In this document: positions 6,396 to 50,959 of the stretch, in pieces
How positions within the stretch are numbered: position 1 is the stretch's first letter
Layout: the number at the start of each line of letters is the position of its first letter
NCBI GenBank assembly: GCA_965217865.1
Contig: CBDCJO010000002.1
Location: 3,168,001 to 3,232,000 of the forward strand
Direction: 5' to 3'
Length of the DNA stretch: 64,000 nt
Source: Candidatus Latescibacterota bacterium
Lineage (GTDB): Bacteria; Latescibacterota; UBA2968; SICM01
The notes under the pieces: generated by a model
Told to the model about the DNA's origin: nothing
Databases searched by the model: none
The model's input: only the letters and a program-made list of their open reading frames with translations
Made by a program: the position numbers and the translations under genes

Positions 6396-6659
6396 GGTCC
6401 GGCTCCAGTGAATACATACCGGGGGACGTTCCCAAACGTCGAACCAGGCTGTTAAATAAAGCCGACGGGAAAAACAGAGAATCAGAGAATCCGGAGGAGA
6501 TATCTCTGCTCAGCGGACGCAACCCCACGGTTGTGCTCGAACACCGGGGGAAACGCTTCGAACCAGAGAATCGGCAGAGAGGGGAAGGAGGTGGCACAAG
6601 TGTTTGTGAATACGACAGAAACGACAAGACCCCGAAGGGTTGCCCCACGGAGTCTTGCG
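6396..6659 (+). repeat. Non-coding element-end repeat, copy A of 5
   Basis: Aligns by eye with 23533-23788, 27020-27386, 37592-37825 and (inverted) 50780-50959. Confidence 0.9.
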
Positions 6660-12353: not shown

Positions 12354-14399
12354 TGCGGTTGTGGACGCCTGGAGCCGCCGCGTCGTTGGCTGGGCGATGG
12401 CGACCCATCTGCGCGCCGAGCTGGTGCTCGAGGCGTTGAATATGGCGCTCTGGCAACGACAGCCGGAAGCCGTCATCCATCACTCCGACCAGGGATGTCA
12501 GTACACCTCCATTGCCTTCGGTCTACGGTGCTGTATCTATTCTGAGATAACAAGAGAAAAGCAGATAAAGGTCCAAGCAAGATTCAGGCAGCCTTGTGGA
12601 TGGTCTGGGATGTTCTTTGCCGATTGATTTCTATGCGGCGCTGCCGAGCCTCCTCCTTTCGACCTTGTCGGTGGTGAAGAATCTTTTGATGCTGGCCTTT
12701 ATGCCTCTGAAGAGGCGTGACATACTGTATTGCCCCGTGATAGCGTTCGGCGTTGTAGCTGTGAATGAAGGAATCAATCAGGCCTTCCAGTTGATGGAAT
12801 GTGAAGATGTCCTGGAAGCGCAGCCAGTCGTATTTGAATGTCCGGAAAAAGGCTTCGATCCAGGCGTTGTCCGTGGGTGTTTGATATCGGGCAAACAGCT
12901 GCGAGATGCCCAGGTCCTTGAAGAATTGGGCCATCGATTTGGCCTTCATCTGAGATCCGTGATCTGAGAGGGCTGTCAAGCTTATGGGCCCAGTGTCCAG
13001 GTCCAGCAGTCCTTCGTTGGCAAGGGCTTGATCCCAGGCCTGTTTGACCTGCTCCACGGTCGCGTTGAAGGAGAGCTTCCATCCTACGATCTTCCTGGAA
13101 TACACGTCGAGAATGGCGGTAAAATACAGGAACAAACCGAAAAATGGGATGTAGGTCAGGTCCCAGCTCCAGACCTGATTAGGACCTTCAGGTTTGACCT
13201 GGGGCTTGCTCTGCTTGACCGGCGTCCTCACCTGTTTCCTGCGTGCCAGACGTTCTTTCCTGGCCTGTCGGTAGAAGCTGGAGGCCGAGGCCTGCACTAC
13301 CCCCTTCTCTGAGGCTACCACCGCCAGCTGATGGGGAGGCAGATCGGCATAGGTCTCATCCCTTAAGAGGGCCGGGATTTGCTCTTTCTCCTCCCTCAGC
13401 AATCCGTGTGGGGCCTCATCAGGGGCGGGCCCGGGCTTCCCATCCAAAAGCGGGTCCGACACCCCATCCAGCTTCTCTTCTCGATCTCGCCGGCTCCAGG
13501 CACAATACCGCTGGAGGGGAAGCTGTAGGATCTCGCAAGAACGGGTGAGTTTCACCCCTTTCTCCTTGGCCCGATGGACCATTAAGAGGATCTCGCGTTT
13601 GACCTCAGCTTGCACCCGGTGGCCCTTGATCGGGCCTGTCAGATCCCATTCACACTTTTTTTTAGCAGGGAAAGTTCCACAGATTGCTCAATGATCGTTT
13701 GCTCCAGGCGTGCCCGCTCTTTGCGCAGCTGCTCCACCTCCTCAGCCGATACCATCGGCTTGCGGCTCCGGCGACCCTTGAACTCCTTGAGGGCCCCGGA
13801 CTTGACCGACTCACGAATACGCTTTAGATCCGAGGAATGAATGCCCCATTTCCGCAGCACCTGTGCAATGGGAACATCTCCCCGGCTGGCTTCAAGGAAA
13901 ATCTCATACTTCTGTTCCGGGGACAAGCTCCTGCGCTTCTTGACCGGGTCACTGTTTGAGGACAGTTGCTCCATCTTTACTCCTCCTGTGAGGTCAGGGA
14001 TATCCCAAAATATGTATCCCTTCTCAACCCTACAGGCAACCAGGATCTTGCTTCGACCTTGCCCCCGTTTTTTCGGGCGATCTCAGACAAAAGATAGTGC
14101 CGCAAGGCCGGTGTCCGGCCTTCTATGGGTTCCACCGGTGATTGCTACGACAACGCGTTATGCGAGAGCTTCTTCGCCACGCTTGAATGCGAACGCCTGG
14201 ATCGCCGAAACTACCGCACACAGGCCGAAGCCCGGATGTCCGTATTTCAATACATCGAGGGCTGGTACAACCTCCATCGGCGACACTCAGCACCCGGATA
14301 TCTCTCTCCAATGAACTTCGAGAAGACCTCCAGCGATGTCGCCCTTGCAGCCGACTGAATCGAAACTGATAAACCGTCCGCTAAACCGGGGTAACTCCA
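12354..14399 (+). mobile_element. IS3-family element type B, 3' part, interrupted by a type A copy
   Basis: Near-identical to 40075-40547; ends AAACCGGGGTAACTCCA. Confidence 0.9.
12532..14096 (-). mobile_element. IS3-family element type A, complete (1565 bp); orfA 13639-13974, orfB 12584-13615; 4-bp TSD GTGC
   Basis: rve motifs WSWDLTY, SDHGSQM, DNAWIEAFF; A8G slippery site; GTGC at 12528-31 and 14097-100. Confidence 0.95.
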
Positions 14400-14432: not shown

Positions 14433-15070
14433 GTGAGCATTGTGCACTCTTACGCCGTCGGGAGCGGCGACATGTTTTCAATCCGACATGACTCGGATAA
14501 CTGCACGATCATTGATTGCAGCATTTCGAAGGACGATCAAGACTGTCTATTGGGGGAGATTGACAAGCAACGTAAAGGCAAGGCAATCACGCGATTCATA
14601 TCCACACATCCAGACCAAGACCACCTAATGGGCCTGTCGGCACTGGACGACCATATTAAGATCTTGAACTTTTATGTAGTGAAGAACAATGCCACAAAGG
14701 ACGACGAAACCGACGACTTCAAGCGCTACAAGAACCTACGGGACGGAGACAAGGCCTTTTACATCCATAAAGGATGTACCAGAAGGTGGATAAATCAGAG
14801 TAATGAGGAGCGCGGCCATTCAGGCATCAACGTCTGGTGGCCTGTGACTTCTAACGAGGACTTCAAGCAGGCGCTGCAGGATGCGGCCGATGGCATGAGT
14901 CCGAACAACATCTCTCCCGTGATTACCTGTTCTCTCGAAAACGGTGTCAAGATGGCTTGGTTTGGAGATCTTGAGACGGAGTTCATGGAAAAGATCGCAG
15001 ACGAGATTTCGTGGCCCGAGGTTGACATTGTGTTTGCACCACACCATGGACGGGATAGCGGCAAGATCCC
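14433..15070 (+). pseudogene. ComEC/Rec2-like metallo-beta-lactamase-fold hydrolase, probably 3'-truncated
   Basis: VGSGDMF, STHPDQDHLMG, FGDLE, APHHGRDSG. Confidence 0.8.
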
Positions 15071-15089
15071 TGCTCTATTAGATGAAATC

Positions 15090-15118
15090 TTGACGAATAT
15101 CTCGAAAAAGTGTATTCT
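15090..15118 (+). promoter_or_regulatory. Sigma70-like promoter
   Basis: TTGACG-N17-TATTCT. Confidence 0.45.
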
Positions 15119-15715
15119 ATACAACGTCTCGAAGGGGGATGGGTAGGATGAACACCTAAGAAAGAAAATGGGATACTTGGAGGGTAACGCCGAAAAAAAG
15201 ACTCATATCCTGGGTGGGATTGTACATAATTCTCTATATGTTTTCTACAGGCTGGTCCTGCTACTTGTAATCTTCTACTTGTTCTTTAACTACTTTGTAT
15301 GGTGACCCGTTTGGTTGTGTAAACTCTTGGGCCTCTCTGTCTCCTGTGGACGAATCGGGCCGTCAGGGGCGGTTCTGGTCCGGGAAAGAGGCTATTCCAC
15401 GAGCCGAAGCTGTTCTCTTGGGTGGCATAGCAAGCTTCGAGGGGCAGGGGACCAGCACCACCACCGGCCACTTCGAGTCAGTCTGTCATTATCACTAATC
15501 ATTGCAGCGGAATAATGGCGACACAGCAAGCGATTGCCCAACTTAAAACTGCGCTCGAGCGCTTAGAATCCATCGGTACGCAGAAGCTCTTTCGTCCTAA
15601 CCTGGGAGACGAGTCACTGCAATCAGAGCTCGAGCCGAAACTGAATAGGGTTTTGGACTTTGCTCGGTTCGCCCTTGAGTACGCGACAGAAGTGGCAGAT
15701 AGACAAGTTGACGCT

Positions 15716-15920
15716 GTGGCCGGGAGGCGGGGTCTACCTGAGCAATGAGGGGAGGACGAGCCTGATCAAGGCATGGGAGGCCCACAAGGAAGCGGAGATA
15801 TATCATGCTATTTCCGATCGACAGATAGGCAGGTGGGCATTGCCATCGGTCCAGGCGACGCTGCTCGCACGACATCTGCGCGGTGATCTACCGGCCTATC
15901 CACCCTTCGTCATGCCGTGA
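15716..15920 (+). pseudogene. cas1: cas1 3' fragment (type I-G/I-C-like)
   Basis: GGGVYLSNEGR...QATLLARHLRGDLPAYPPF. Confidence 0.9.
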
Positions 15921-15923
15921 GCT

Positions 15924-16214
15924 ATGGACCTTCTGGTCACCTACGACATCGCCGACACGGAAGGCCTGGGAGCGTCTCGACTCAGGCGTATCGCCGAAGT
16001 CTGCGAGAAGTACGGTCAACGGGTGCAGCTATCGGTATTCGAGTGTCGCCTGTCCCATGAGCGGTTGGCTCGCATGATCAACGAGATGCAGGATGTCATC
16101 GACAGTCATCGTGATTCGGTGATCGTGTATCGCTTCCCCGGGCACTTGGAGGAGGCCAGACTGCGCTTCGGTCGGAGCCAACCTCACGAGTTGGGCCAAC
16201 CTTGGGTGCTTTGA
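15924..16214 (+). CDS. cas2: CRISPR-associated endoribonuclease Cas2
   Basis: LVTYDIAD...RLRRIAEVCEKYGQRVQLSVFEC. Confidence 0.95.
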   Translation: MDLLVTYDIADTEGLGASRLRRIAEVCEKYGQRVQLSVFECRLSHERLARMINEMQDVIDSHRDSVIVYRFPGHLEEARLRFGRSQPHELGQPWVL

Positions 16215-16418
16215 CTCATCTGCGAACCCTCGGTGATCCTGGGGAGCCGCGTCACAAGCGGCGTCTTTAGGGCCGGTTTTTCCCGATTGTGCCGATTTCT
16301 CTTAACTGGTATCGTTCGTAAGGCTGTGAATCTACCGCAAACACGTCACCTCCGACGGCTCCCCGCCTTGCGAAAAGGCCATGTTTCGCCTTGAATCCCC
16401 CTTTTCCCAGGATTAGCA

Positions 16419-16512
16419 GTGTCGCCGGGGTATGCGCCCCAGCCTTCGTTGAGCGCGGGAGCAGGAGATCGCACCCCGTGTGACAGAAGCGGTGTCGCCG
16501 GGGTATGCGCCC
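16419..16512 (+). CRISPR. CRISPR stub: 37-bp repeat GTGTCGCCGGGGTATGCGCCCCAGCCTTCGTTGAGCG (16419-16455), 36-bp spacer, first 21 bp of a second repeat; leader 16215-16418
   Basis: Direct repeat with GGGG/CCCC hairpin about 200 bp after cas2. Confidence 0.9.
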
Positions 16513-16549
16513 TTGGCCCGCCAAATTGCCGGCGACAAGGGCGTCGCCA

Positions 16550-16872
16550 CGCCTGAATACGCATCAGAAAGCTGCGTTGTACAAAGTCTTTCTGCCAGAG
16601 GAAGCCAAACGGATTGCAGACAAGATTGACATGCATTTCACACCCAAGCGCGGCAGTTGGCTCAACATCGCCGAAATCGGCCTGAACGTCCTCTACCGTC
16701 AGTGTCTGGATCGACGCATCTCTACCATCCAACAACTCGGCAAGGAAGTGAAAGCTTGGCTCACAGAGCGGGATCAGAATCCACCCATCGTCAACTGGCG
16801 CTTCAACACCAAAGATGCACGCATCAAGCTGAAGCGCCTCTATCCCGCACTCCTACCTGGGTGAACCACTAG
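16550..16872 (+). mobile_element. IS630-family transposase 3' fragment
   Basis: HFTPKRGSWLNIAEI...WRFNTKDARIKLKRLYP. Confidence 0.85.
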
Positions 16873-16888
16873 CCTTCAGGGATGCCTG

Positions 16889-19800
16889 ATGAGATCACGA
16901 ACACCCGCAAGTGTGGTCGTCCTCTGCATCGCGTGCATCGTAGTTGGCGTGTCCGCTGCGGAGCAATCAGGACAGATCACGGGCGTCGTCGTCGACGTGA
17001 CGGACGGCGTGCTGCCCGGCGTGTCGGTCAGGCTGGGCGGCGCTCCGAGCGGCCCGCAGCAGGTGCAGACGGATGCGCGGGGCCGGTTTGCGTTCACCGG
17101 CCTCTCGCCCGGCGTCTACAGGGTGTCCGTCTACCTGAACGGGTTCGGCGAGGCGGCCGTGAACGACGTCGCGGTTGCGGGCGATCCGGTGGCGCTTCTT
17201 TCCATCACGTTGCGGCGGGCCGCGTTCGACGACGTCGCGGTCGTCACTGCGACCCGGGTCGAGGAGCCGCTGCAGCAGGTGCCGATGAGCATCTCCGCGG
17301 TGACCGGCGCGGACATCGAGCGTCGGGCGATCGGGAACCTGACGGAGCTGTCGCACTGGACGCCCGGCTTGACCGTGGTCGATCAGGGCGCACGCGGCAG
17401 CAACGTCATCATCGCGCGCGGCCTGCACACGGATGCGCTGAACGGATCGGAGGCGGCCGGCAACAACTACAATAACGGCGTTGCCACCTACCTCGGCGAC
17501 ATTCCGCTCGCCGTCGACCTCCGGCTGCACGACATCGAACGCGTCGAGGTGCTGCTCGGACCGCAGGGGACGCTGTACGGCGCCGGCACGCTGGCCGGAG
17601 CGGTGCGCTACCTGCCTCGTCGCCCGGACACCGAACGCCGCACGCTGGACGTCCGCGGCGACCTGTTCGGCTTGGCGCACGGCGGCGCCCCCGGAACCGA
17701 CGCCGGCCTGACCTTCAACCTGCTGTATCTATTCTGAGATAACAAGAGAAAAGCAGATAAAGGTCCAAGCAAGATTCAGGCAGCCTTGTGGATGGTCTGG
17801 GATGTTCTTTGCCGATTGATTTCTATGCGGCGCTGCCGAGCCTCCTCCTTTCGACCTTGTCGGTGGTGAAGAATCTTTTGATGCTGGCCTTTATGCCTCT
17901 GAAGAGGCGTGACATACTGTATTGCCCCGTGATAGCGTTCGGCGTTGTAGCTGTGAATGAAGGAATCAATCAGGCCTTCCAGTTGATGGAATGTGAAGAT
18001 GTCCTGGAAGCGCAGCCAGTCGTATTTGAATGTCCGGAAAAAGGCTTCGATCCAGGCGTTGTCCGTGGGTGTTTGATATCGGGCAAACAGCTGCGAGATG
18101 CCCAGGTCCTTGAAGAATTGGGCCATCGATTTGGCCTTCATCTGAGATCCGTGATCTGAGAGGGCTGTCAAGCTTATGGGCCCAGTGTCCAGGTCCAGCA
18201 GTCCTTCGTTGGCAAGGGCTTGATCCCAGGCCTGTTTGACCTGCTCCACGGTCGCGTTGAAGGAGAGCTTCCATCCTACGATCTTCCTGGAATACACGTC
18301 GAGAATGGCGGTAAAATACAGGAACAAACCGAAAAATGGGATGTAGGTCAGGTCCCAGCTCCAGACCTGATTAGGACCTTCAGGTTTGACCTGGGGCTTG
18401 CTCTGCTTGACCGGCGTCCTCACCTGTTTCCTGCGTGCCAGACGTTCTTTCCTGGCCTGTCGGTAGAAGCTGGAGGCCGAGGCCTGCACTACCCCCTTCT
18501 CTGAGGCTACCACCGCCAGCTGATGGGGAGGCAGATCGGCATAGGTCTCATCCCTTAAGAGGGCCGAGATTTGCTCTTTCTCCTCCCTCAGCAATCCGTG
18601 TGGGGCCTTATCAGGGGCGGGCCCGGGCTTCCCATCCAAAAGCGGGTCCGACACCCCATCCAGCTTCTCTTCTCGATCTCGCCGGCTCCAGGCACAATAC
18701 CGCTGGAGGGGAAGCTGTAGGATCTCGCAAGAACGGGTGAGTTTCACCCCTTTCTCCTTGGCCCGATGGACCATTAAGAGGATCTCGCGTTTGACCTCAG
18801 CTTGCACCCGGTGGCCCTTGATCGGGCCTGTCAGATCCCATTCACACTTTTTTTAGCAGGGAAAGTTCCACAGATTGCTCAATGATCGTTTGCTCCAGGC
18901 GTGCCCGCTCTTTGCGCAGCTGCTCCACCTCCTCAGCCGATACCATCGGCTTGCGGCTCCGGCGACCCTTGAACTCCTTGAGGGCCCCGGACTTGACCGA
19001 CTCACGAATACGCTTTAGATCCGAGGAATGAATGCCCCATTTCCGCAGCACCTGTGCAATGGGAACATCTCCCCGGCTGGCTTCAAGGAAAATCTCATAC
19101 TTCTGTTCCGGGGACAAGCTCCTGCGCTTCTTGACCGGGTCACTGTTTGAGGACAGTTGCTCCATCTTTACTCCTCCTGTGAGGTCAGGGATATCCCAAA
19201 ATATGTATCCCTTCTCAACCCTACAGGCAACCAGGATCTTGCTTCGACCTTGCCCCCGTTTTTTCGGGCGATCTCAGACAAAAGATACTGCCGCTCGTCA
19301 CGCGGAAGCTGGCGCTGCGCGGCTCCGTCGATCGCTACGGCGCCCCTGGGTTCATCGACTACAACTACCTGTTGCGCACGCCGGGCGTCTCCGAGCCGGA
19401 CCTGACCGATCCCGAGGCGGTGGAGGCGAACCTCCGCCGGGAGCCCGACGCGAACACCGAGGAGACGCTCTCCGCGCGGCTCTCCCTGCTCTGGGAGCCG
19501 GCGTCGGACCTCTCGGCCCTCGTCGCGTACCACTTGCAGGATCAGTGGGTCGGGGCGCGGCAGATCAACCACGTGCGGTCTTTCGGCACGGATCGCTACG
19601 TCTCCGCGCACCGCTTCGTCGAGCCCAACGACCGGAAGAACGAGCTGTTGAGCCTGGAGGTGACCTGGGCGCTGGGTAGCACGGAACTGACGTCCGAGAC
19701 CGGCTACTCCCGCTTCGTGGAGCGCGGCCAGCGCGACCAGACCGACCTCCTCATCCAGGAGTTCGGCATCGCGGGACTGCTGCCCGGCACGTTCCCGGCG

Positions 19801-20830
19801 CTCGCGCGGGCGCAGGCGATCGATTCGGGCGTCACCGCCACCGACCTGACGTCCGGGTTCCGCTCGTTTGCCGCCTATACGCGGGAAGACGCGCGGGAGG
19901 AGCGCTTCAACTGGGAGGTGCGGCTGGTCTCGACCGGCGACGGGCCGTGGCACTGGGTCGGCGGCGCGTTCTTCAACAACTACGACAGCCGCGCGACGAG
20001 CTTCGAGTACGCGCCCGGGCTGTCGGAGTTCTCCGGTGTTACGCCGATCCTGGGTGGGAGCCCGGTGTCCGAGCCGGTCGAGTACTACAACCTCGGGGTG
20101 CAGGACGTTGAAGAGCGTGCCCTGTTCGGCAAGGTCACGCGCGACCTCGGCGACCGGTGGCGCGTGACGGGCGGCGGCCGCTGGTTCGGCTACGGCATCG
20201 CGACCGGCAGCCTCAGCGAGTTCGAGTCCGACGACCGCGGCTTCCTGTTCAAGGGGAGCGTCAGCTACCGGCTCGACGACCAGACGAACGCGTACTTCAC
20301 CCGGTCGGAGGGGTACCGCATCGGCGGCGGCAACAACTTCCGGGTCTGCACCGACGCGGAGATCGCGCTGCTCACGGACGCTGATGACAGCAACGACCCG
20401 CCGCAGTCGGGTTGCATCTACGCCGATCAGGCGCTCATCCGGCCGGACAAGACGACCAACTACGAGGTGGGGCTGCGCCACTCATGGCGCGACGAACGGT
20501 TCACCCTCAGCGCGACCGTGTTCCACGTCGACTGGACCGACATCCAGGTGGCGGGGCTTACCCCGTTCAGTGCGGAGCCGATCACGCTGAACGGCGGCGG
20601 GGCGGTGAGCCGCGGTGTCGAGGTGGCGTCGGCGGCCAGCGTGACGAACGCGTTGCGCCTTCGCGGGTCGTGGTCGTATACGCGGGCGGATCTCAGTCAG
20701 GACTCGCCCGGCCTGCTCGACGACGGCGCCGACGCCTTCGAGGGCGACCGGCTTCCGGGCGCGCCGCTACTTCGCCAACGTGCTCGCCCCGCGGCGGGCC
20801 GGCGTCCGCATCCGATACTCCCTCTGGTGA
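16889..20830 (+). pseudogene. TonB-dependent receptor, IS-interrupted and with two internal deletions
   Basis: Signal peptide, VVTATRVEEPLQQVP and GPQGTLYGAGTLAGAV plug motifs; frame rejoins across the IS (FNLPLVTRK); likely true C-terminus RYFANVLAPRRAGVRIRYSLW* is in a shifted frame ending 20830. Confidence 0.9.
17724..19287 (-). mobile_element. IS3-family element type A, complete (1564 bp); 4-bp TSD CTGC; slippery run one A shorter
   Basis: CTGC at 17720-23 and 19288-91; near-identical to 12532-14096. Confidence 0.95.
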
Positions 20831-21039
20831 GGTCCGCAAAAGACGTGGTCACGGGCGCCAACAGCCATTTTATCCGAGGCGTCGAAGATATGAAGAAATA
20901 AATATCTGTCCCGGATATAGAGAGATACCTGAGTCGCATCTTATTAGAGTTTTATCCACCTCTGAGGGTTGGTACGTGGATCTTTTTAGTGTCTCAGCCA
21001 GACGGTTCTGTTTTGAGGAAGGAGGCCGTAGTCCGATGA

Positions 21040-21225
21040 TGAATGCCGGGAATCTCCCAGCTGGATACGCGATTCCTGCCCACCATTTTCGTTCCTACAC
21101 CCACACTACCGGAATCAGCGAGACGATCGAACTAGCGCGCGCCTTGGATCAACTGCCTCGACGGCTGATCGTATTCGGCATCGAAGGGAAGACTTTGGGG
21201 ACGGTACGGGACTCTCAGAACCCGT
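21040..21225 (+). pseudogene. Hydrogenase maturation protease fragment
   Basis: THTTGISETIELARALDQLPRRLIVFGIEG. Confidence 0.65.
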
Positions 21226-21319
21226 TCAGGCGGCCGTGAGTGAGACGATAGAACGCGTTAAGAAAGAGGCTTCCATTCCTGGGGATTCCGACCAGGCTGA
21301 CTCTCAAATTGCAACCATA

Positions 21320-21778
21320 ACCCGTACGCGGCGTCCTCCCAGGGATCGGATAAACTGTCTGCTTTCCTTCATCTATGCCTTGGTCCGCCACGATTGTTTG
21401 GCTGCGTTGACGACCGCTGGACTGGACCCATACGTCGGGTGGCTCCATGCGACGCGCGCGGGGAGGCCCGCCTGCGCCTTGGATCTGATGGAGGAATTCC
21501 GGCCCTGTTTGGCGGAGAGACTGGCGTTAACCCTGATCAACCGCCGTCAAATAGAGACCAGGCATTTTCGTGAACGAGAAGGCGGCGCCGTGGAATTCAC
21601 CGACCGGGGCAGGAAAGAGGTTATCCAGGCTTGGCAACAACGCAAGCAAACGGAAGTCAAACACGCCCTGTTCAAGCAAAACATCCGTTTAGGGCAAGTC
21701 TTCAGTATTCAAGCCAAGTTATTGGCCCGGAATCTCCGCGGCGATGTCCCTGACTATATCCCCTTCATTTCAAAATAA
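21320..21778 (+). pseudogene. cas1: Type I-C cas1 3' half
   Basis: RTRRPPRDRINCLLSFIY...GLDPYVGWLH...ALDLMEEFRP. Confidence 0.95.
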
Positions 21779-22068
21779 TGTTTATCCTGATCGCGTACGA
21801 CGTTTCGACCACGGACAAACCTGGGCAAAAACGACTGCGCCGGGTGGCAAGAGCCTGTGAGGATTACGGTGTCCGGGTTCAAAAATCGCTTTTTGAGTGT
21901 CAGGTCGGAAAAACCGAATGGGCAGTGCTCAGGAGTCGTCTGCTAAAAGAAATCGACCCTAGTCAGGATTCCCTCAGGTTCTATTACATGGACGAAGACT
22001 CCAGAAAGGAGACGGAGCATCACGGGATCAAAGAACCCGTGGACTTTAACGCGCCACTGATTTTATAG
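21778..22068 (+). CDS. cas2: CRISPR-associated endoribonuclease Cas2 (type I-C)
   Basis: MFILIAYDVST...RLRRVARACEDYGVRVQKSLFEC...DSLRFY. Confidence 0.95.
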   Translation: MFILIAYDVSTTDKPGQKRLRRVARACEDYGVRVQKSLFECQVGKTEWAVLRSRLLKEIDPSQDSLRFYYMDEDSRKETEHHGIKEPVDFNAPLIL

Positions 22069-22248
22069 CATGCGCGAATGCAAAGTAACGGAGTTTTTGC
22101 CGTGTATTCGCGCAGCTGGAAAGTGACTGTATAGCAACAGGTTCTCGCGTTTCTTGACAGTCGAGTCAGGAGTTCTTGACAATTATTCGATCGAATCGCG
22201 CATACACCTGTATAACCTTTTGGTATTCTGCTGGTTACAGCAGCCAGC

Positions 22249-22343
22249 ATCTCCCCTTGCTTCGGTGAGGGGAGCGGATTGAAACGATGGTACTGATGAT
22301 GCTACGCTTGGTCAGCGATCGATCTCCCCTTGCTTCGGTGAGG
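22249..22343 (+). CRISPR. CRISPR stub: 37-bp repeat ATCTCCCCTTGCTTCGGTGAGGGGAGCGGATTGAAAC (22249-22285), 36-bp spacer, first 22 bp of a second repeat; leader 22069-22248
   Basis: ATTGAAAC 3' handle, internal hairpin, position after cas2. Confidence 0.9.
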
Positions 22344-22614
22344 ACCCGACACTGAGCTGCGTGACACCGAGCAAATCCCGCTGTTGGAGGAGGGCGGAAT
22401 CGAGGCGTTCCTGCGCCGAGAAGTGCTGCCCTATGCGCCTGACGCATGGTTTGTGCCGGACAGCATCAAGACCGGCTACGAGGTCAGCTTCACCCGATAC
22501 TTCTACAAGCCCCAGCCACTGCGCAAGCTGGAAGAGATCCGGGCGGAAATTCTGGCGCTGGAGCAGGAGACGGAGGGGTTGCTCGAAAAGATTATTGGGA
22601 CAATGGAAAGATGA
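22344..22614 (+). pseudogene. hsdM: Type I R-M methyltransferase HsdM 3' fragment
   Basis: PDTELRDTEQIPL...REVLPYAPDAW...GYEVSFTRYFYKPQPLR. Confidence 0.9.
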
Positions 22615-23420
22615 GCATGGTTCCTTCGTTCCCCGCAGGTCAGATCGAGTCGTTGGCAAAACTGCTCGGTGATTGCGGTACTGGACCGGATATCACTCGT
22701 ATGCTGGCTCATTGCGGGCTGATTGATGGCTCGGGAGAATCCACCAAATGGCGGAGGCTCTATTGGGTATTCCTCGATGTCCAGAACAGGGACAGGTGCG
22801 CCAACCAAACACTCAACTTCATTAAGGCTTTCTTTACGCCTGCCCGTTTCGTTGGCAGGAATGAGGAATTCGAAACGCACCGTCAAGCACTGAACACAAT
22901 CTTGGCATTCTCAGGGCTTGAGTACGGATCTGACGGGAAATTCCGGAAGCGCCGGGCTGCACAGACGCTGAGTGAGGCAGAGCGGCGAGCAGACACGATC
23001 CAGGCAAAGTTTCAGGGGCGGCGCATCCATCCGGAAGTAATGAAGTACTGTCGCGCTGAACTTATGCAGGACGACTACTTCCATGCTGTCTTCGAGGCGA
23101 CCAAAGGGCTGGCGCAACGGATTCGCGAGATGTCGGGAGTTGATGGGGACGGAGCGACCCTTGTGGATCGGGTCTTCTCTACCAGCCGACCAGTGCTGGC
23201 GTTCAACCCGTTGCAAACCGAGACGGAAAAGAGTGAACACCGGGGATTTGCTGAGCTGCTGAAGGGTTGCCTTGCGGCCGTCAGGAACCCTCGCGCGCAC
23301 GAACCGAAGATACTCTGGAAGGGTGAAGATGATGCAGCGGACTACTTCACTCTGATTTCACTCCTCCATCGGAAGCTGGATGATTACGTGACGACCGGGT
23401 TGAGAGCATTCCGTGATTAG
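22611..23420 (+). CDS. TIGR02391-family protein (AbiJ-like N-terminal domain plus HEPN-like C-terminal domain)
   Basis: STKWRRL, YFHAVFEATK, DGATLVDRVF, VRNPRAHEPK; ATGA overlap with hsdM. Confidence 0.85.
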   Translation: MSMVPSFPAGQIESLAKLLGDCGTGPDITRMLAHCGLIDGSGESTKWRRLYWVFLDVQNRDRCANQTLNFIKAFFTPARFVGRNEEFETHRQALNTILAFSGLEYGSDGKFRKRRAAQTLSEAERRADTIQAKFQGRRIHPEVMKYCRAELMQDDYFHAVFEATKGLAQRIREMSGVDGDGATLVDRVFSTSRPVLAFNPLQTETEKSEHRGFAELLKGCLAAVRNPRAHEPKILWKGEDDAADYFTLISLLHRKLDDYVTTGLRAFRD

Positions 23421-23532
23421 AGACCTCCACTCCTACCCCTCCTACAAGCCCTCCGGCGTCGAGTGGCTCGGCGACGTGCCAGAGCATTGGGAGGTACGGC
23501 GATTGAAACACGTTTGCTCAAGGTTCGCGCTT
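23413..23532 (+). pseudogene. hsdS: Type I R-M HsdS 5' fragment
   Basis: YPSYKPSGVEWLGDVPEHWEVRRLK. Confidence 0.9.
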
Positions 23533-23788
23533 ATCCGGAGAAGATATCTCTGCTCAACGGACGCAGCCCCCACGGTTGCGCTTGCAATCCCGGGGGGAGC
23601 GCTTCGAAACAGAGAATTTGCAGAGAGGGGGGAAGATGGCATAAGCGTTTGTGAATACGGCAGAAACGACAAGACCCCGAAGGGGTTGCCCCACGGGGTC
23701 TGGCGTTAACGGACGACCGCCTAAGTTGGCGGATGGGAATATGGCTCCCCATATGATCCTCTCCCCGGAACCATTCTCTGTTCGTCAG
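23533..23788 (+). repeat. Non-coding element-end repeat, copy B (includes ATATGGCTCCCC core)
   Basis: Aligns with the 3' two-thirds of copy C. Confidence 0.9.
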
Positions 23789-24157
23789 TCATAACTTCCG
23801 CGCCGATGTCCTGGCCCTGGAGCGGGAGAGGGAGGGTTGCTTGATGAAATCATCGGTGGCGGCGCGGGGTTGTGAACGCGCAGCAGTTCAAGATATGCGC
23901 CTGGGCATGGAACCCCGAACTCCAGTGGGGGCTCGGCTGTCGCCCCCAATTTGCCGTCTGTCCGTGTGGGACTATGGCGTGAGACAGTGGCGACCGCCTC
24001 CGACCTTTCAAGTCCTTCTCCGGGAAACAGATCGCCAGGTTTTGAGGGCGCAGGGTGGCTCATGGCGATTGAGGGATGACAACTTGTGGAATTTGATTCC
24101 GTTGGGAGATTTCTGGCGTGGGTCAGTGGCGAGCTCGAGACAGCGTTGAGGGCACAG

Positions 24158-24220: not shown

Positions 24221-24375
24221 CGGGCGGCACGTGGGCGAAGTGAGAAGGTCCCGGTCCCGTGGATTTGCGGCCCGGGACCTCACTCGTGATCGGGGTCGAG
24301 CATCTCGAGAGCCCGAGCTTCGGCTTCCTCGCGAGTCATTCCACCCTCATGCTCCATGATCCCCGCGCGTTCATC

Positions 24376-25149
24376 TATCTTTTGTCTGAGATCGCCCGAA
24401 AAAACGGGGGCAAGGTCGAAGCAAGATCCTGGTTGCCTGTAGGGTTGAGAAGGGATACATATTTTGGGATATCCCTGACCTCACAGGAGGAGTAAAGATG
24501 GAGCAACTGTCCTCAAACAGTGACCCGGTCAAGAAGCGCAGGAGCTTGTCCCCGGAACAGAAGTATGAGATTTTCCTTGAAGCCAGCCGGGGAGATGTTC
24601 CCATTGCACAGGTGCTGCGGAAATGGGGCATTCATTCCTCGGATCTAAAGCGTATTCGTGAGTCGGTCAAGTCCGGGGCCCTCAAGGAGTTCAAGGGTCG
24701 CCGGAGCCGCAAGCCGATGGTATCGGCTGAGGAGGTGGAGCAGCTGCGCAAAGAGCGGGCACGCCTGGAGCAAACGATCATTGAGCAATCTGTGGAACTT
24801 TCCCTGCTAAAAAAAAGTGTGAATGGGATCTGACAGGCCCGATCAAGGGCCACCGGGTGCAAGCTGAGGTCAAACGCGAGATCCTCTTAATGGTCCATCG
24901 GGCCAAGGAGAAAGGGGTGAAACTCACCCGTTCTTGCGAGATCCTACAGCTTCCCCTCCAGCGGTATTGTGCCTGGAGCCGGCGAGATCGAGAAGAGAAG
25001 CTGGATGGGGTGTCGGACCCGCTTTTGGATGGGAAGCCCGGGCCCGCCCCTGATGAGGCCCCACACGGATGAGACCTATGCCGATCTGCCTCCCCATCAG
25101 CTGGCGGTGGTAGCCTCAGAGAAGGGGGTAGTGCAGGCCTCGGCCTCCA
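24376..25149 (+). mobile_element. IS3-family type A, 5' half; intact orfA, 44-bp deletion in orfB, 3'-truncated
   Basis: Starts TATCTTTTGTCTGAGAT; deletion between two GGAT copies at ~25067-70. Confidence 0.95.
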
Positions 25150-27019: not shown

Positions 27020-27386
27020 CTGGTGACCGGACCACCGGGTCCGGCTTCCAGTGAATACGTACCGGAAGACCTTCCCAAACGTCGAACCAGGCTGTTAAAT
27101 AAGGCCGACGGGAAAAACAGAGAATCAGAGAATCCGGAGGAGATATCTCTGCTCAGCGGACGCAACCTCACGGTTGTGCTCGAACATAGGGGGAAACGCT
27201 TCGAAACAGAGAATCGGCAGAAAGGGAAGGAGGTGACACAAGTGTTTGTGAATACGGCAGAAACGACAAGACCCCGAAGGGGTTGCCCCACGGGGTCTGG
27301 CGTTAACGGACGACCGCCGAAGTTGGCGGATGGGAATATGGCTCCCCATATGATCCTTTCCTTCGGAACCATTCTCTGTTCGTCAG
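27020..27386 (+). repeat. Non-coding element-end repeat, copy C (longest)
   Basis: Spans all the other copies. Confidence 0.9.
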
Positions 27387-32763: not shown

Positions 32764-34020
32764 CTAAGACATTACCTTAATTTCGTTAGAATAGTTCATA
32801 ACTTTTTCAAAAGCTTGAGCGTATTGATCTAAAATGCCATTATCCGGTCCAGGAAATGATGGTAGCTTTAAAAGTGATTTATTGACAGCTTCAGTAATGG
32901 GAAGAGAACAGTTTTCATATGACGGGACTTGATTTCCTGGGGACAACCTCAAAATTTCCTTGAAAGCCCCCTCTGTAAAAAATGGCTGTTGATGAACCAA
33001 AGGATATCTTGGAGCAGTCACTTGGCATCCTTCCTTGGTCAATGCCTCTGCAAGTATTTCAATGGGTAGAGGATGTTTAGTTTCCTCGTATCTGATTATA
33101 TACTCAAAGTATACTCTTTGAATATGATCTGGCGGCAGGAAGGTGTGGAAATCAAGGTTTTCAAGTTTTCTGGATAGGTATGTAAGATTTTTATTACGTA
33201 TTTTATTATGCTCATTTAGCCGCCTGAGTTGATTACAGCCTATGGCAGCAGAAAGAGGCGCTATCCGCGTTTTTATCCCGAAGCTTGTCGCGGCAAATTT
33301 CCGGGATGATGTTTGAAGTTCAATGATTCTTGTAATGTCTCCAAGACACACAGCTTTCTCGTAATATTCATAATTATTGCAAAGAAAAATCCCGCCTTCC
33401 CCTGCGGGGGCAAGCTTGTCTCCCTGTAGGCTAAATACGGAAATATCTCCAAGCGAACCACATGGCCTACCTCTCCAGAAAGCTCCATGGACATGAGATG
33501 CATCTTCAATGATTTTCAAGTCAAATCTTTTAGCAATGTCAAATATCTCTGTCATCTTGCTTGGAAGACCCCAAAGATGGACGACAACTATAGCACGGGA
33601 TTTTGGTGTTATCTTTTTTTCCAAATCTATCGGATCAATACCCAACCGTTCTTTCTCGCTTTCACAAAACACGGGTACAGCTCCAATCCACAACATTGGA
33701 AGAACTGAAGCCCAAAAAGTAGCGGAAGGCACCAAAACTTCGTCACCTGGTTGAAGACCGATGCTGTGGAAGGCTGCTAATAAAGCAGAGGTGCCATTGT
33801 TGTGAGCAAGTGCATATGATCGTCCGGTAAATTCAGAGTAGGCATTCTCTAATTTCCGGATAATTTTATGCGTAGAAATATTTCCATCCTGCATAACTTG
33901 TAATACGGTTTTTTCATCATCATGAGTAAGGTTGGGCCATCTGTTTGACAATTCATGGCTTATGGATACTGCAGGTATACCACCCAAGATGGCGGGAAGA
34001 TTTGTTTCACCATTGTTCAT
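32764..34020 (-). CDS. DegT/DnrJ/EryC1/StrS-family PLP aminotransferase
   Basis: NNGTSALLAA, VVHLWGLP, IIEDASHVHGA, FSLQGDKLAPAGEGG. Confidence 0.95.
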   Translation of the reverse strand: MNNGETNLPAILGGIPAVSISHELSNRWPNLTHDDEKTVLQVMQDGNISTHKIIRKLENAYSEFTGRSYALAHNNGTSALLAAFHSIGLQPGDEVLVPSATFWASVLPMLWIGAVPVFCESEKERLGIDPIDLEKKITPKSRAIVVVHLWGLPSKMTEIFDIAKRFDLKIIEDASHVHGAFWRGRPCGSLGDISVFSLQGDKLAPAGEGGIFLCNNYEYYEKAVCLGDITRIIELQTSSRKFAATSFGIKTRIAPLSAAIGCNQLRRLNEHNKIRNKNLTYLSRKLENLDFHTFLPPDHIQRVYFEYIIRYEETKHPLPIEILAEALTKEGCQVTAPRYPLVHQQPFFTEGAFKEILRLSPGNQVPSYENCSLPITEAVNKSLLKLPSFPGPDNGILDQYAQAFEKVMNYSNEIKVMS

Positions 34021-34035
34021 ATTGTTTCCCTTTTG

Positions 34036-35455
34036 TTAATGGATTTGCTCAATTATATCATCAAACCGTCCTCGAACTTTGTTTATATATTCATCTAGGT
34101 GACTATCGTGATTCTGCCCCTTGTATTCAGGTAAATGAGAGGATAACGTTTTGAGGTATTCTAAATTATCATTCTGAAAACCAAGGCCCTCTCTGGGTAA
34201 CCATTGGGAAATGTTGGTTCTCCTTCTCAAATAGTCTTCAAGAGTACAACAAAACTCATTACTAACACACCAGTCAATTGCAGGTACTTTGTCATGCAAA
34301 CCAGGGAAAGATGCCCAAGATATTTTCCCGGTTTGGTTATCAGGGCAGGGGATTTCCTTCAAACTGGGAGGGATCTTTTTAATTATTTTCTTTGTAACTT
34401 TTTCTGCCATTGAAATACATCCGCTAATTTTTCCCCCATAAATTGAAATCCATGGCAAATCAGAGTCATCAGCAATTTTATGATTGCGAGAAATATTTAG
34501 AGGATAACAGTCGGCATTAAATGTTTTCTTCACGGCGAGAGGCCGAAGGCCACAGCGGAGCGAAACAATCTTTGATTTAGCCATGAAATATTTCAAATGT
34601 CTAGACGCATGTTTTAATAAAAAATGGAGATCTTCAGGGGTAATTTTGTTTGTCCGGCCTCTCATAGCCAATAAAAACACCTTTACTGTATACATGCTTA
34701 TAGGAACTTTGGATACCAAATCGTTTATTGACATTATCAGTCCACACTCCAGCACAATTTAGGAGCATTTTTGCCTTTATTGTGCATTGATGACTTGAAA
34801 AATAATCTTTTAGGTCTAAAGACCAGAATTTGTCTTTATTGTTATAGTTCGCATCCTGAATGGAGCAGTAATTAAGGGCCAAACAGTCTTCTGTTTGATT
34901 GTAAATAATCCAATCCAGAACAAATCTGCTGTCTGACTGATTAAGGAATCCTTCTTGGTAGAGGATCGATTCTTTATCATTTTTATGGTTTATAATGTCC
35001 AGTTCCTCAAACTTTCTCTGAATGGTTGGCCTTTCTCGCCTACATTTCCCCAACAGCCAATAGAGTTGTAAGGCAAGATAGACAAAATACTTATTCCGTC
35101 CCCATTCGCTATTTGAGATATATCTGAAGTATTTTTGACTGACATGATTATTAAATGAATTTATCATTATGTCTCTGTCTTTTGAAAAATTATAGACCGA
35201 TAAAAAATCAAGATTTTTTAAATAAAGCAATCCTCCCCAAATCATCATTGCTGACGCCTGACTTGTTCCGCAACTGAAATCACCTTTGTCTATTAGAAAT
35301 ACTTTATAGCCTTGTTGACTTAGCTCTCTATAAATTGAAGCACCATTTATTCCGCCGCCAATAATAGCAATATCAAAGGATTTATTTTCAAGAACATTCC
35401 AATTTACTTGACGAATGTTCATGTGTCCTTGAATTGTATCGTTTTGAAAACTCAT
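34036..35455 (-). pseudogene. GlpD-like FAD-dependent oxidoreductase, frameshifted by an internal deletion near 34650
   Basis: IIGGGINGA, DFSCGTSQAS, NCAGVWTD; C-terminal frame CGLRPL, GGKI, LEDYLRRRT. Confidence 0.85.
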
Positions 35456-37361: not shown

Positions 37362-37590
37362 GCTACTCCGGCCAGTAGCCGGACACGATCCGGTGCCGCT
37401 TGATGCCGGTCGCCTCGGCCGTATAGACCCAGGCGAGTTCGCGGGCGCCATTCACCGTGGCGGGTATCAACACGCGCCGGAAGAAGCTGGAACCGCCCAG
37501 GGCGGAAGCCCTCGAGGCGGTCTATGGGGGCAGGCGCAATTCGGGATCGTCGAAGGCGAGCAGTTCTCCGAACACGTCGCCAACCCGACC
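37362..37590 (-). pseudogene. Gamma-glutamylcyclotransferase (AIG2-like) 3' fragment, frameshifted
   Basis: VFGELLAFDDPELRLP..DRLEGFRPG...ELAWVYTAEATGIKRHRIVSGYWPE*. Confidence 0.7.
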
Positions 37591-37591
37591 G

Positions 37592-37825
37592 GGCTGTTAA
37601 ACAAGGCCGACGGGAAAAACAGAGAATCGGAGAATCCGGAGGAGATATCTCTGCTCAACGGACGCAGTCCCCACGGTTGCGCTCGAACACCGGGGGGAAC
37701 GCTTCGAAACAGAGAATCTGCAGAGAGGGGGAGGAGACAGCACAAGCGTTTGTGAACACGACAGAAACGACAAGACCCCGAAGAGGTTGCCCCACGGGGT
37801 CTTGCGTTAACGGACGACCGCCTAA
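37592..37825 (+). repeat. Non-coding element-end repeat, copy D
   Basis: Aligns with copy C. Confidence 0.9.
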
Positions 37826-38527
37826 CCTGAATGTCGGGCGCCAGGTGGAGCAGGTTCATGATCTGCGTGATCCTCGCCCGGGTCACGCAGCCGAGGCGCG
37901 CCAGGTCCGCATAGTCCCGCAGGTCGCCCCTCCGGACCAGTCCCTCGAACCGGATCGCCAGGGCCGTCAGTCTCGATATGCGAGGCATATTCCCCGGCTC
38001 GACATTCCGGTCCTGATCCACGGGGCGGCAGCCGTTGTTCCGGCCGTTCCCGGGCTGGAACGTGAAGGATACTTCCAGGGGGCCGGCCCGGGTTGCATCG
38101 GATGGGCGACCGCTCATCGCATGACCTCCTGTCCGTTGAGACCCGCCTTCCGGCACAGCGCCTCGATGCCGGGTGGGCGAAAGGTGACGGTCACCGTGCC
38201 GTCCCGTCCGTCGTAGCCGACCCGCTCGATGAGCAGCCGGAGTCTCCGGGCCTGCTCCCGCGGGGCCAGCGCCGCCCAGACCGGGTCGAAGATCTCCAGG
38301 GCCCGGGCCAGGTCGCTTTCATTCACGGCTTCCCGCTCAAGAGCGGGAGCCTCTTCCCGGAGAGCGGTCAGCCGCTGTTCCCGCGCTTTGGCCGCCGCGA
38401 CCTGTTCGTTCATGCCGATGCCGCGGATGTGCTCCACCACTGCGGTTTCGATCTCGTGGGCGTTGAGGGACCTGCCCGGACACGACGACCGGCCCCGCTG
38501 CCGGGCATTCCTGCAGACGTAATATGC
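37826..38527 (-). pseudogene. Large serine recombinase C-terminal part (38114-38527) and its usual small downstream partner gene (37826-38117, truncated)
   Basis: YYVC, FDPVWAALAPREQARRLRLLIERVGYD; RISRLTALAIRFEGL...DYADLARLGCVTRARITQIMNLLHLAPDIQ. Confidence 0.8.
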
Positions 38528-44889: not shown

Positions 44890-46297
44890 GACGAGGAGTG
44901 GGTACGCACCCCGGACCAGCCATGGGTGCTTGTTGGCACACAGGATCAGCTTCTCTCTCGCGCTCTGAATCGCGGTTACGCGATGAACAGGTTCGAATGG
45001 CCAGTTCATTTCGGAGTTTTGAACCAGGATTGCCGCTGGATCGTCGACGAGATTCAGCTGATGGGCCCTGGACTATGGACCACGGCACAGCTGGATTGGA
45101 TGCGGCGGAAGAGGTTCTTCGCGATCAAGCGGTGTTCCACTACATGGATGAGTGCCACCGTTGGCACCAGATTTCTGGCAACCACCGACCGCAAGAAGGA
45201 CGGGCTCGACTCATTCCACTCCCTTCGATCCGCGCCTCGAGGAGGATAGCAACGAGGAGATCCAGCAACGTCGTGCTGCCCGACGCCGAATAGCATGGTT
45301 TGAGCCGAAATCGGGCAAGAAGGCAGATCCAATCCACCAACAGCTGGCCTCCGAGGTTGTGGCCCGTCACGCGGATGGCGCGCTGTCACTTGTCGTCTGC
45401 AACACAGTCGACTTCGCACAAAAAGTCTTCCAGATATTGCCAGATTTTTTGCCGAAGATCCTTCTCACATCGCGCTTCCGCCGCTGCGACCGTAGTGCTG
45501 CGGAGAAGCAGCTGATCGACTTCGAGACGCGGCGGAGCCGGGCAACTCGTGACGATCGTGTCTCAAACGGAAGGATGCAGGACGACCCCGGCCTGATCTG
45601 TGTCAGCACGCAGGTCGTCGAGGCTGGCGTCGATATCTCGGCGCACCGGCTGTGGTCGGAACTCGCGCCCTGGCCGTCCATCGTTCAGCGCCTCGGTCGC
45701 TTAAATCGCGACGGACGTGACAACCCAAGCGAGAAGAGTGATGGTGCGCGCGCCTTCTTTTGGAAGACGCCAAAGAGCAGTGTGAGAAAGAGTGAAGGAG
45801 ACGAGTATCTCGGTCCCTACCGCAAGAACGAGGTCGATGGCGCAGCCAAACTCTTGTCTGCACTCATCGTGCCGTCCTTAAAGAAGACGTTTACCGACGC
45901 ACTGAGTGCGCTGGAAAAGACCCAGGGCAAGTCACTGCGAGAGGCCCTTGAACCGTGTCCGTGCCCGTTGCCCCGTGCCCTTGATGTGCACGGTCTGTTC
46001 TCCACGGAACGCGATGTTCACGGTGGCTTCACCGATGTGAGTACGTTCGTTCGCGATGCTGATCCCGATGCTGATCTGACCGTCTTCTGGCGAACGTGGA
46101 CCGGGCGCCGTCCTCCCTCTGCCGACGCGCTGGATGGGCCCGTCCTGGATCCGAATGCCGAAGGGTGCGCTGTCGCGTTCCACCGAGTTGCTGAGCACCT
46201 CAAGGCGCGACGCGCACACGCGTGGCTCTGGAACGACGAACAAGCGCGATGGGACTTCTGTACCGCTGCCGACCTTCGGCCGGGAATGTCCATCATG
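44890..46297 (+). pseudogene. cas3: Type I-G (I-U) Cas3 helicase internal fragment, frameshifted near 45225
   Basis: VGTQDQLLSRALNRGY, DEIQLMG, MSAT, STQVVEAGVDIS, QRLGRLNRDG. Confidence 0.85.
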
Positions 46298-47005
46298 CAT
46301 GGCTCGTGCGTTTGCTACAAGGAGGAAGAATTTGGGAAACTGTTTTTCGCACTCAAGAGTTCCTCGAATGCTATGGAATCCCCTGCGGGAAAACCGGTAT
46401 CCTGTCTAAGATAGTAAGTGATTGAGAACCAATGGAGTTATAACTCTGGGCTTAGACAACTTCATGCGAGCGAAAAATCGAGATTGCTTCATCCGCATAT
46501 TCAGCCAGAAACCGAGGAGCTATTTCAAGGATATCTTTCCCAAATCACTCACTTGGAAAGGAATTGCCCAATCTTGTTTGATGATTTCGGCGGAATACCT
46601 GTATTCTCCTTGAATAACGTCGATTCCATACGTGCGTTTTTTCGTGGCCTCTGTGAAATCGTCACGTGAGGCGGACGAGAGGTGTAGGAGATACGTTTTC
46701 AACAAACCAGTCCCGTGCATCAAGGAAGAGGCTAACACCCAGGACTTCGACAGATAGGTCGGGCTTGATTAGACTATGTCACTTCATAGTGTTATCACTG
46801 AGATCGCTTTCTAGACGAAGAATTGTCCAGTCACTGTGGCAAACAGCGTGTGACCTGCGATGGAAAGTATACGAATGTGACCTGTCGAACTACGATTTCA
46901 TTTGTTCTATATCCTTAGCGAAACACGATTGAGAAACTGGGGAAGATGCCAAGTGGAAAACACCATTTGCAGCATGCAACGCAAGATTGACGATGATCGC
47001 TTGGA

Positions 47006-50779: not shown

Positions 50780-50959
50780 GCTCCCCCCGGTGTTCGAGCG
50801 CAACCGTGGGGTTGCGTCCGCTTGAGCAGAGATATCTCCTCCGGATTCTCTGATTCTCTGTTTTTCGCGTCGGCCTTGTTTAACAGCATGGTTCGACGTT
50901 TCGGAAGGTCCTCCAGCAAGTATTCACAGGAAGCCGGACCCGGTGGGTCCGGTCACCAG
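50780..50959 (-). repeat. Non-coding element-end repeat, copy E (inverted)
   Basis: Reverse complement aligns with the 5' half of copy C. Confidence 0.9.

Follow-up and report, generated by a model that had tools for sequence, protein, structure and literature searches.

Two truncated CRISPR loci, here called stub A and stub B, were examined in a window of 64,000 nucleotides (nt) from a Candidatus Latescibacterota bacterium (GenBank assembly GCA_965217865.1, contig CBDCJO010000002.1, positions 3,168,001 to 3,232,000 of the forward strand; coordinates below without a contig prefix count from the first base of this window). The two stubs are real and convergent. Comparison with intact loci identifies stub A as a type I-G tail and stub B as a type I-C tail, and both are probably scraps that were cut, end-joined into a patchwork zone and likely collapsed to a single spacer, in other words products of ordinary decay that most likely do nothing. 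A preliminary description of this DNA had given both the same layout, namely the 3′ part of cas1, a whole cas2, a leader, one repeat, one spacer and the start of a second repeat, and every one of these parts is present in each stub, with the left edges moved to 15719 (from 15716) in stub A and to 21317-21318 (from 21320) in stub B. For both stubs it was also right about the 37-bp repeats, the 36-bp spacers and the cut of the second repeat, kept for 21 nt in stub A and 22 nt in stub B, within the 3′ arm of the predicted repeat stem (nt 18-25 in A, nt 17-26 in B); the partial stem-loop that this cut was said to leave did not hold for stub B, where the truncated copy, folded together with its flank, fails to form the repeat stem.

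The parents of both stubs were recovered in a search of 61 genomes. From 15719 onwards stub A is 84% identical at the DNA level to an intact type I-G locus in genome G041 (cas7g-csb2-cas3g-cas4-cas1-cas2-leader-24 repeats), and the two Cas2 proteins are 85% identical. Sequence of stub B was matched in 13 of the 61 genomes, the best match (84% overall and in cas1 DNA, 83% for the Cas2 protein) being an intact type I-C locus in G007 (cas3-cas5-cas8c-cas7-cas4-cas1-cas2-leader-109 repeats), and full arrays of either repeat family, for which a check had been proposed at the outset, do exist. Stub A has the gene order of a type I-G tail and the I-G repeat family, with cas1 cut and cas7g, csb2 and cas3g absent beside it; stub B has the cas1c-cas2-leader-array tail and repeat family of type I-C, again with cas1 cut. 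Compared with the I-G loci of sponge symbionts (G041, L030-L073) and the I-C loci of G007 and G029, the stubs share the cas1-cas2-leader-repeat order, 84% DNA identity and the repeat families but are without effector genes and cas4, have a cut cas1 and keep one spacer. For cas5c, cas7c and cas8c, tblastn with the G007 proteins gave no match in the genome, nor was there a match to the TIGR02589 profile.

The two loci had further been called unrelated. Their repeats are indeed different, but unrelatedness was overstated, as a full-length comparison of the two Cas2 proteins gives 33% identity, and both cas1 pieces have the Cas1c model as their best match. At C2:3763700-3763200 a cas1-cas2 piece of system A directly adjoins a remnant of array B (12 nt, spacer, 12 nt), and systems A and B may have come from one donor region. 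The cas1 scrap in this sibling copy (C2:3763599) starts at the identical base as in stub A; further copies of the stub A cas2 are whole at C2:2442915 and cut at C2:3763394. Stub A is separated from its sibling by differences at 10 of 638 sites, with two silent and two changing codons in cas2 (the cas2 codon counts against the donors, 16 silent and 14 changing, and 15 and 16, reflect donor history and were not used). As to the host, Cas1 and Cas4 of a Candidatus Latescibacterota locus (L032) are the same as in G041, a genome of the same class, and the remaining Cas2 relatives are mostly from lineages which we take to be sponge symbionts; sequencing runs labelled as sponge contained only small shares of the sequence words, and two RNA runs (X21 and X22) at most 0.1 of them. 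The host is likely a sponge-associated member of the Latescibacterota, a group whose sponge representatives are described as carrying CRISPR and restriction systems (PMC12993501).

Gene order (cas1-cas2-leader-array) dictates the left half of the common layout: cas1 abuts cas2 and cas2 abuts the leader in both parents, so that any short piece keeping cas2 whole will tend to start within cas1, as did 59% of the simulated scraps retaining a whole cas2 (scrap lengths taken from the genome's own distribution, 25-unit donor). Under random cutting, 1.3% of these simulated scraps had the exact stub layout, a share that rose to 14% after deletion of the units between full repeats, or to 8% if last repeats of 7-23 nt only were counted. 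Outside the resident cas locus the genome has three whole cas2 copies, two of which are such stubs, an outcome with a P value of about 0.0005 without collapse, 0.05 in the 14% model and 0.02 in the 8% model; the convergence thus needs a cause beyond random cutting, in agreement with the preliminary description. That cutting alone, without collapse, produced two scraps that both happened to end in a second repeat is very unlikely on these figures, even allowing that scraps are short (median 184 nt) and that the pattern was chosen post hoc from a very large scan, and six leader-bearing scraps in this genome that keep only one full repeat speak against it as well.

In the course of events that we favour, scraps of I-G and I-C loci would have been imported, as seems likely, and end-joined into the patchwork zone. 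A scrap keeping the 291-nt cas2 whole would nearly always start inside cas1, because cas1 abuts cas2, and would end at some point of the array, in about half of cases within a repeat. Without selection, units between full repeats would be lost by misalignment far faster than point mutations accumulate, and a last repeat of 21-22 nt would be a poor misalignment partner, so that the final spacer would survive; a scrap ending in a spacer would collapse to a leader and one repeat. Collapse of CRISPR arrays to a single repeat, blocked by altered or 3′-truncated terminal repeats, has been described, together with a RecA-independent misalignment that increases with repeat length (PMC8047081), and a length of at most 30 bp has been given for RecA-dependent initiation (PMC8918686). 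The per-spacer deletion rate has been put at 374 times the per-site mutation rate (PMC11472070); if that rate applies, the 10 differing sites between stub A and its sibling correspond to about three expected deletions per spacer per lineage.

Several other scraps look like products or intermediates of the same process. A leader with one repeat occurs at C2:2442420, C2:1033309, C2:3312271 and C2:1062147 (three I-G copies are each followed by different sequence), which is the outcome that the collapse model predicts when the cut fell in a spacer. Predicted intermediates were found elsewhere, one with a 5′-cut cas1, a whole cas2, 13 repeats and a 10-nt part repeat (L117), one with a cut cas2, a leader, two repeats and a third kept to about nt 23 (G023) and one with a repeat, a spacer and a 22-nt part repeat but no cas match within 20 kb (G042), besides lone repeats in G041, G333, G652 and G736. 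The stubs resemble collapsed or orphan arrays (Garrett 2021, PMC8047081; PMC11472070) in their leader, one full repeat, presumed last spacer and 3′-shortened terminal repeat with no working cas1 alongside, and in being leader and repeats left without a working adaptation and effector module; they differ from the arrays described in the parts of these papers drawn on here in that a joint to foreign DNA made the short repeat of stub B, that they would be imported scraps and that at least six such end states occur in one genome. The short repeat of stub B is a true joint to foreign DNA. Among 27 distinct visible I-G array ends three are cut to 10-22 nt, so stub A may instead have taken over its short repeat from the donor, as a worn trailer repeat.

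The matching positions of the two cuts had been linked to deletion triggered by the repeat hairpin. In the form considered here, the palindrome would make a stem on single-stranded or extruded DNA and be cut, or slipped past, in its 3′ arm, leaving scraps that end preferentially at nt 21-23; such a bias could be combined with collapse. All genome copies of eight repeat queries were listed, the ends after nt 28 of a 29-nt repeat being excluded as ambiguous, and 12 breaks inside repeats were obtained, of which six to seven fall in the 3′ arm; in other genomes, the 3′-cut last I-G repeats of L052, G042 and G023 keep about 22, 22 and 23 nt. The breaks nevertheless scatter over the repeat. Repeat A is broken after nt 21 (window), 20, 22-24 (the end of an insertion sequence, IS) and 15-19 (microhomology with cas4), the last two, counted among the 3′-arm breaks, weighing against a hairpin origin; repeat B is broken after nt 22 (window), 13, 5, 8, 25 and 12, and other repeats after nt 18 and 14. 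Outside this genome the 3′-cut last I-G repeats keep 10, 11, 15, about 22, 22, 23, 31, 32 and 34 nt. Without the two window stubs, four to five of 10 breaks lie in the 3′ arm (P 0.15-0.35 at an assumed 30%), as against three of nine within nt 18-24 outside the genome (P 0.35) and seven to eight of 19 when pooled (P 0.11-0.23), and a hand count for 36-37-nt repeats gave about 11 ends in repeats to 11 in spacers. Cut position thus leans to the 3′ arm but not significantly and is indistinguishable from chance, and breakage biased by the hairpin, unsupported as the main cause, is quite unlikely. Integration of long DNA by Cas1-Cas2 at repeat ends was also considered and rejected: where the next scrap could be placed, it starts 0, 2, 8, 13, 34, 38, 39 or 73 nt after the repeat match, with no fixed point, and base-exact cas1-to-repeat joints were not seen in this genome.

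The stubs lie in a patchwork. More than half of the window sequence (54%) has another copy in the genome, which contains 575 low-copy duplicated segments; 19 of the 235 segments of at least 300 nt are identical, with a median identity of 98.8%. Patchwork zones alternate with ordinary stretches, and 24% of all 50-kb intervals are at least 30% duplicated, compared with 20 of 23 CRISPR-related sites located in such intervals. The neighbours of both stubs are scraps, too, an IS630/TonB piece and a restriction-system piece. The scrap to the right of stub A is 98.6% and 96.8% identical to C2:72373-75059. On the left of stub B, cas1 is fused in frame to a hydrogenase-region scrap that is 97% identical to C2:709373-709195, whose continuation differs. 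On its right, the joint at 22343 has no overlap, and the restriction-system scrap has three other copies (98.6-99.4%), each with natural upstream sequence; it holds a TIGR02391/PD-Lambda-3-like gene flanked by a methylase-like 3′ end, which reads as that of a type I restriction methylase-like gene, and by a specificity-subunit-like start. An identical copy of the stub B repeat lies at C1:586962.

After removal of joints beside high-copy sequence and of repeated joints, 76 low-copy joints remained, with overlaps of 0 nt in 11, 1 nt in six, 2 nt in six and 4 nt in seven; 23 of the 76 thus overlap by 0-2 nt (background 0.22 per position), and nine carry 1-3 extra bases. A whole ligD (774 amino acids (aa); polymerase, phosphoesterase and ligase domains) followed by an adjacent ku was identified in an ordinary region (C2:1098729-1101949, L081), with LigD and Ku above the TIGR02776 and TIGR02772 cut-offs, and comEC is also in the genome. 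Ku is present in 15 of 60 relatives and was not found in two genomes of the same family, both fragmented. The Cas1 search gave 42 full-length matches and few isolated pieces in the 60 relatives, compared with one long match and six pieces here. The joining enzyme may have been Ku-LigD, with roughly equal chances either way. In Sinorhizobium, Ku-LigD is described as capturing foreign DNA at breaks by non-homologous end-joining (PMC6379672), and the two cases share the encoded Ku and LigD and joints that are blunt, overlap by 1-2 nt or contain some filler bases; as far as that description extends, capture there concerned single cassettes in the laboratory, whereas here it would have produced zones that take up about a quarter of the chromosome.

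An origin of the stubs in the assembly, through chimeric joins or collapsed arrays, was weighed on the same material. In its favour, the genome has a contamination rating of 9.3%, its cas1 pieces outnumber those of every one of the 60 relatives, and four sequencing runs did not show the alleles that the window alone carries at 16144 and 21227-21248. These were the runs examined among seven, from two studies, that contain at least half of the words of 15300-22800, one of which may be the assembly source. Among the 32 pieces listed, with 2582 more beyond them, none crosses 16512 or 22343, the joints for which a check in reads had been proposed; a 451-nt contig of run X4 spans the left joint of stub A with zero differences, and exact pieces of the stub B cas1-cas2-leader are present in runs X1, X2 and X4. 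Spacer B was absent among 12 of 47 spacers listed between B-type repeats. Without any N, the window sits mid-contig in 5.77 Mb of sequence, the right joint of stub B offers no overlap for an assembler, and the large duplicated segments are, as given above, rarely identical. The TonB scrap gained its 1565-nt IS after copying, the IS-free allele being present in three runs. Diverged duplicates and the later IS insertion argue for a real history, and an assembler break, which had been offered as a possible cause, is highly unlikely. The 1565-nt IS, which encodes an rve integrase, also lies at 12532-14096 and in part at 24375-25149 as well as at 17724-19287, and its roughly 40 near-identical copies mean that it was recently very active.

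A number of observations weigh against cutting, end-joining and collapse as the origin of the stubs. Even with collapse, two stubs among three scraps are an improbable draw (P 0.02-0.05), and the 374-fold deletion rate was measured in arrays of other bacteria. The patchwork zones still contain uncollapsed scraps, undated, with 14 copies of a 29-nt and 10 of a 28-nt repeat, in addition to a scrap with five short repeats and two leader-like scraps that keep three and 10 repeats, and two full I-G repeats remain at C2:206572. Neither spacer was found in any longer array among those fetched, so that collapse is presumptive for these two stubs. The right joints at 16512 and 22343 were not seen among the pieces listed from the four runs, which showed only the sibling allele of the stub B left flank. 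Of the joints with 4-nt overlaps, four of the seven resemble IS target sites, and relatives with Ku show few cas1 scraps, so that Ku-LigD is not sufficient for a patchwork.

The convergence had also been read as selection for a minimal cas2 plus mini-array module. In its fuller form, Cas2 would act as a VapD-like nuclease and a leader-driven one-spacer RNA as regulator, antitoxin or Cascade decoy. Both cas2 frames and both leaders are whole, and a promoter-like site (22154-22183, 10 of 12 consensus matches) lies in the leader of stub B, where three such sites were counted in the region versus 0.9 in shuffles; a search for a sigma-70-type site in the stub A leader found none. The resident composite locus (C2:606000-624000, L080) has a I-G effector set at C2:615-624 kb, a putative binder of stub A RNA, and a III-A block whose Cas10 is short (489 aa), as well as a CARF gene and cas2, followed by 12 repeats. 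This locus is, however, 2.6 Mb from the stubs, its I-G repeat is different and its Cas7g is not matched by that of G041, and the genome has no cas5c, cas7c or cas8c that could process or carry an RNA from stub B. In the stub A repeat, base 16441 is unlike all four other full copies and breaks one stem pair (predicted stem -11.1 versus -17.3 kcal/mol for the common form). In the resident locus itself, the cas4g/cas1g gene is in two frames near C2:608340, so that adaptation may be broken there, unless this is a sequencing slip.

Spacer targets and conservation speak against such a module in the same way. For spacer A no match covering 80% was found in phages, plasmids, viral contigs or metagenomes, nor for spacer B in phages, the one of these collections searched with it. 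Against the genome and the resident cas locus both spacers did no better than 12 shuffles each, the best seed run in that locus being 9 nt for both (shuffles 7-13 for A and 7-9 for B). Spacer A agrees at 28 of 36 positions with coding sequence of G019, which was set aside as chance, with an E value of 4.6e-4 in one of 132 genomes and two mismatches in the first five bases; the protospacer-adjacent motif (PAM) of type I-G is TTN, and the flank of the match does not fit it. The stub layout was seen in none of 50 genome loci with a relative of Cas2 A (45 with a full or nearly full cas1, 43 with at least four repeats), none of nine metagenome loci (six with at least 13 repeats, three without repeats), 59 related cas2 loci altogether, and none of 29 cas2 loci in relatives (20 with at least four repeats within 1.5 kb, nine with none), and no relative of either Cas2 was found in viral contigs. 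The search of genomes for the same stub thus came back empty, and the repeat-spacer-part-repeat unit also occurs elsewhere without cas2. Sibling cas2 copies are cut, and the cas2 codon changes between window and sibling are two silent and two changing. On all of this evidence together, a selected module is extremely unlikely.

In CreTA, an adjacent small RNA toxin is repressed by the guide; the Rfam search of the window gave no match, and no search aimed at CreT was made. The stubs have in common with regulatory mini-arrays and CreTA/CreR RNAs the two repeats, the distal one degraded, around one spacer. As described in the part of 10.1101/2023.03.03.530964 used here, regulatory mini-arrays are conserved, occur within or next to a functional cas locus, are without the leader acquisition part and have a PAM-flanked cas promoter as their target. 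This is in no respect true of the stubs, which have the shape of a CreR-like element and no promoter-seed match, cognate working cas locus or conservation; the same source allows that some mini-arrays may come from truncated arrays. With Racr RNA anti-CRISPRs the stubs share a near-solitary repeat downstream of a possible promoter, but Racrs are reported from phage and plasmid DNA, away from cas genes and often with acr genes as neighbours (PMC10651486, in the sections drawn on), whereas the stubs are chromosomal and behind cas2, and stub B is without a matching system to inhibit.

These results carry a caution: a repeat, a spacer and a part repeat, the unit that marks regulatory mini-arrays and RNA anti-CRISPRs, is also the expected decay product of a cut array, and function cannot be read from its shape alone. 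More unusual than the stubs is the host genome. If the reading of its joints is true, dense blunt-joined scrap zones beside an intact Ku-LigD would represent natural gene capture driven by end-joining, so far mainly shown in the laboratory as far as PMC6379672 goes; a literature search, covering few subscription papers, found no paper describing such zones in this group, and none on a module of cas2 and one spacer. A bolder proposal, which we hold to be rather doubtful, is that the symbiont habitually ligates short DNA of its neighbours with Ku-LigD, over about a quarter of the chromosome, and that imported arrays act as timers that collapse until they meet a last repeat of at most about 23 nt, the limit of misalignment. 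If so, the stubs would date each import, give a natural measure of the homology threshold for spacer loss, and supply leader-driven one-spacer RNAs, the presumed raw material of regulatory mini-arrays.

Table 1. Coordinates of the parts of stubs A and B and of the DNA adjoining them in the window
Feature	Position	Strand	Remarks
Unrelated upstream gene piece	15515..15718	+	77-codon frame running out inside cas1 scrap; left neighbour of stub A; no Pfam match, no second copy in genome
3′ end of type I-G cas1	15719..15920	+	about the last 66 of 336 codons; TIGR03640 positions 284-340
Whole type I-G cas2, 96 aa	15924..16214	+	above TIGR01573 and PF09827 cut-offs
I-G array leader, full length, 204 nt	16215..16418	+	end-to-end alignment with G041 and L035 leaders (one mis-specified row disregarded)
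Full 37-nt I-G repeat	16419..16455	+	
Spacer A, 36 nt	16456..16491	+	no target found
Second I-G repeat, first 21 nt only	16492..16512	+	
39 nt, further scrap or donor's own trailer flank	16513..16551	+	no other copy in genome or fetched loci
Copied scrap: IS630 piece and 70% GC TonB-dependent receptor gene	16552..20767	+	split by IS 17724-19287
Copied scrap of hydrogenase-maturation-protease region	21137..21316	+	adjoins stub B on the left
3′ half of type I-C cas1	21317..21778	+	TIGR03640 positions 183-339; N-terminal half missing
Whole type I-C cas2, 96 aa	21778..22068	+	TIGR01573 and PF09827 above cut-off; PADLOC Cas2c
I-C array leader, 180 nt	22069..22248	+	homologous to leaders of relatives
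Full 37-nt I-C repeat, 10-bp stem	22249..22285	+	fold z = -3.3
Spacer B, 36 nt	22286..22321	+	no target found
Second I-C repeat, first 22 nt only	22322..22343	+	zero-overlap joint to next scrap
Copied scrap starting mid-gene, restriction-system piece	22344..23511	+	

Further remnants of CRISPR and other defence systems were recorded. An I-G cas4 is joined to a repeat tail via a 4-nt overlap at C2:3340276-3340124, and a repeat tail is followed by a cas3g piece at C2:2435787-2435945; both joints are deletions within one I-G locus. The window itself contains a cas3g scrap (45152-46414), a 3′-cut gene for a PDC-M48B-like metallo-beta-lactamase protein (14433-15146) and a whole QatA-like ATPase (57112-59094). 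Three scattered I-G repeat scraps in G333 (L167, L173, L186), one abutting an inverted csb2 piece, make that genome a candidate for a second patchwork genome.

A non-coding repeat of about 300 nt occurs in the window at 6396-6659, 23533-23797, 27032-27361, 37588-37865 and 50784-50946, with 50-77 BLAST hits in the genome, nearly all in patchwork zones. Its copies have sharp common ends, varied GC-rich upstream parts and no Rfam match, and it is possibly a miniature inverted-repeat transposable element or an uncatalogued RNA, maybe tied to zone formation. The genome also has three reverse transcriptase genes, noted when a possible part of a group II intron or reverse transcriptase was considered. 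Finally, a low-GC island (36-43%) lies at 32764-35455, where the translations read as a DegT-like aminotransferase and a split glycerol-3-phosphate-dehydrogenase-like gene.

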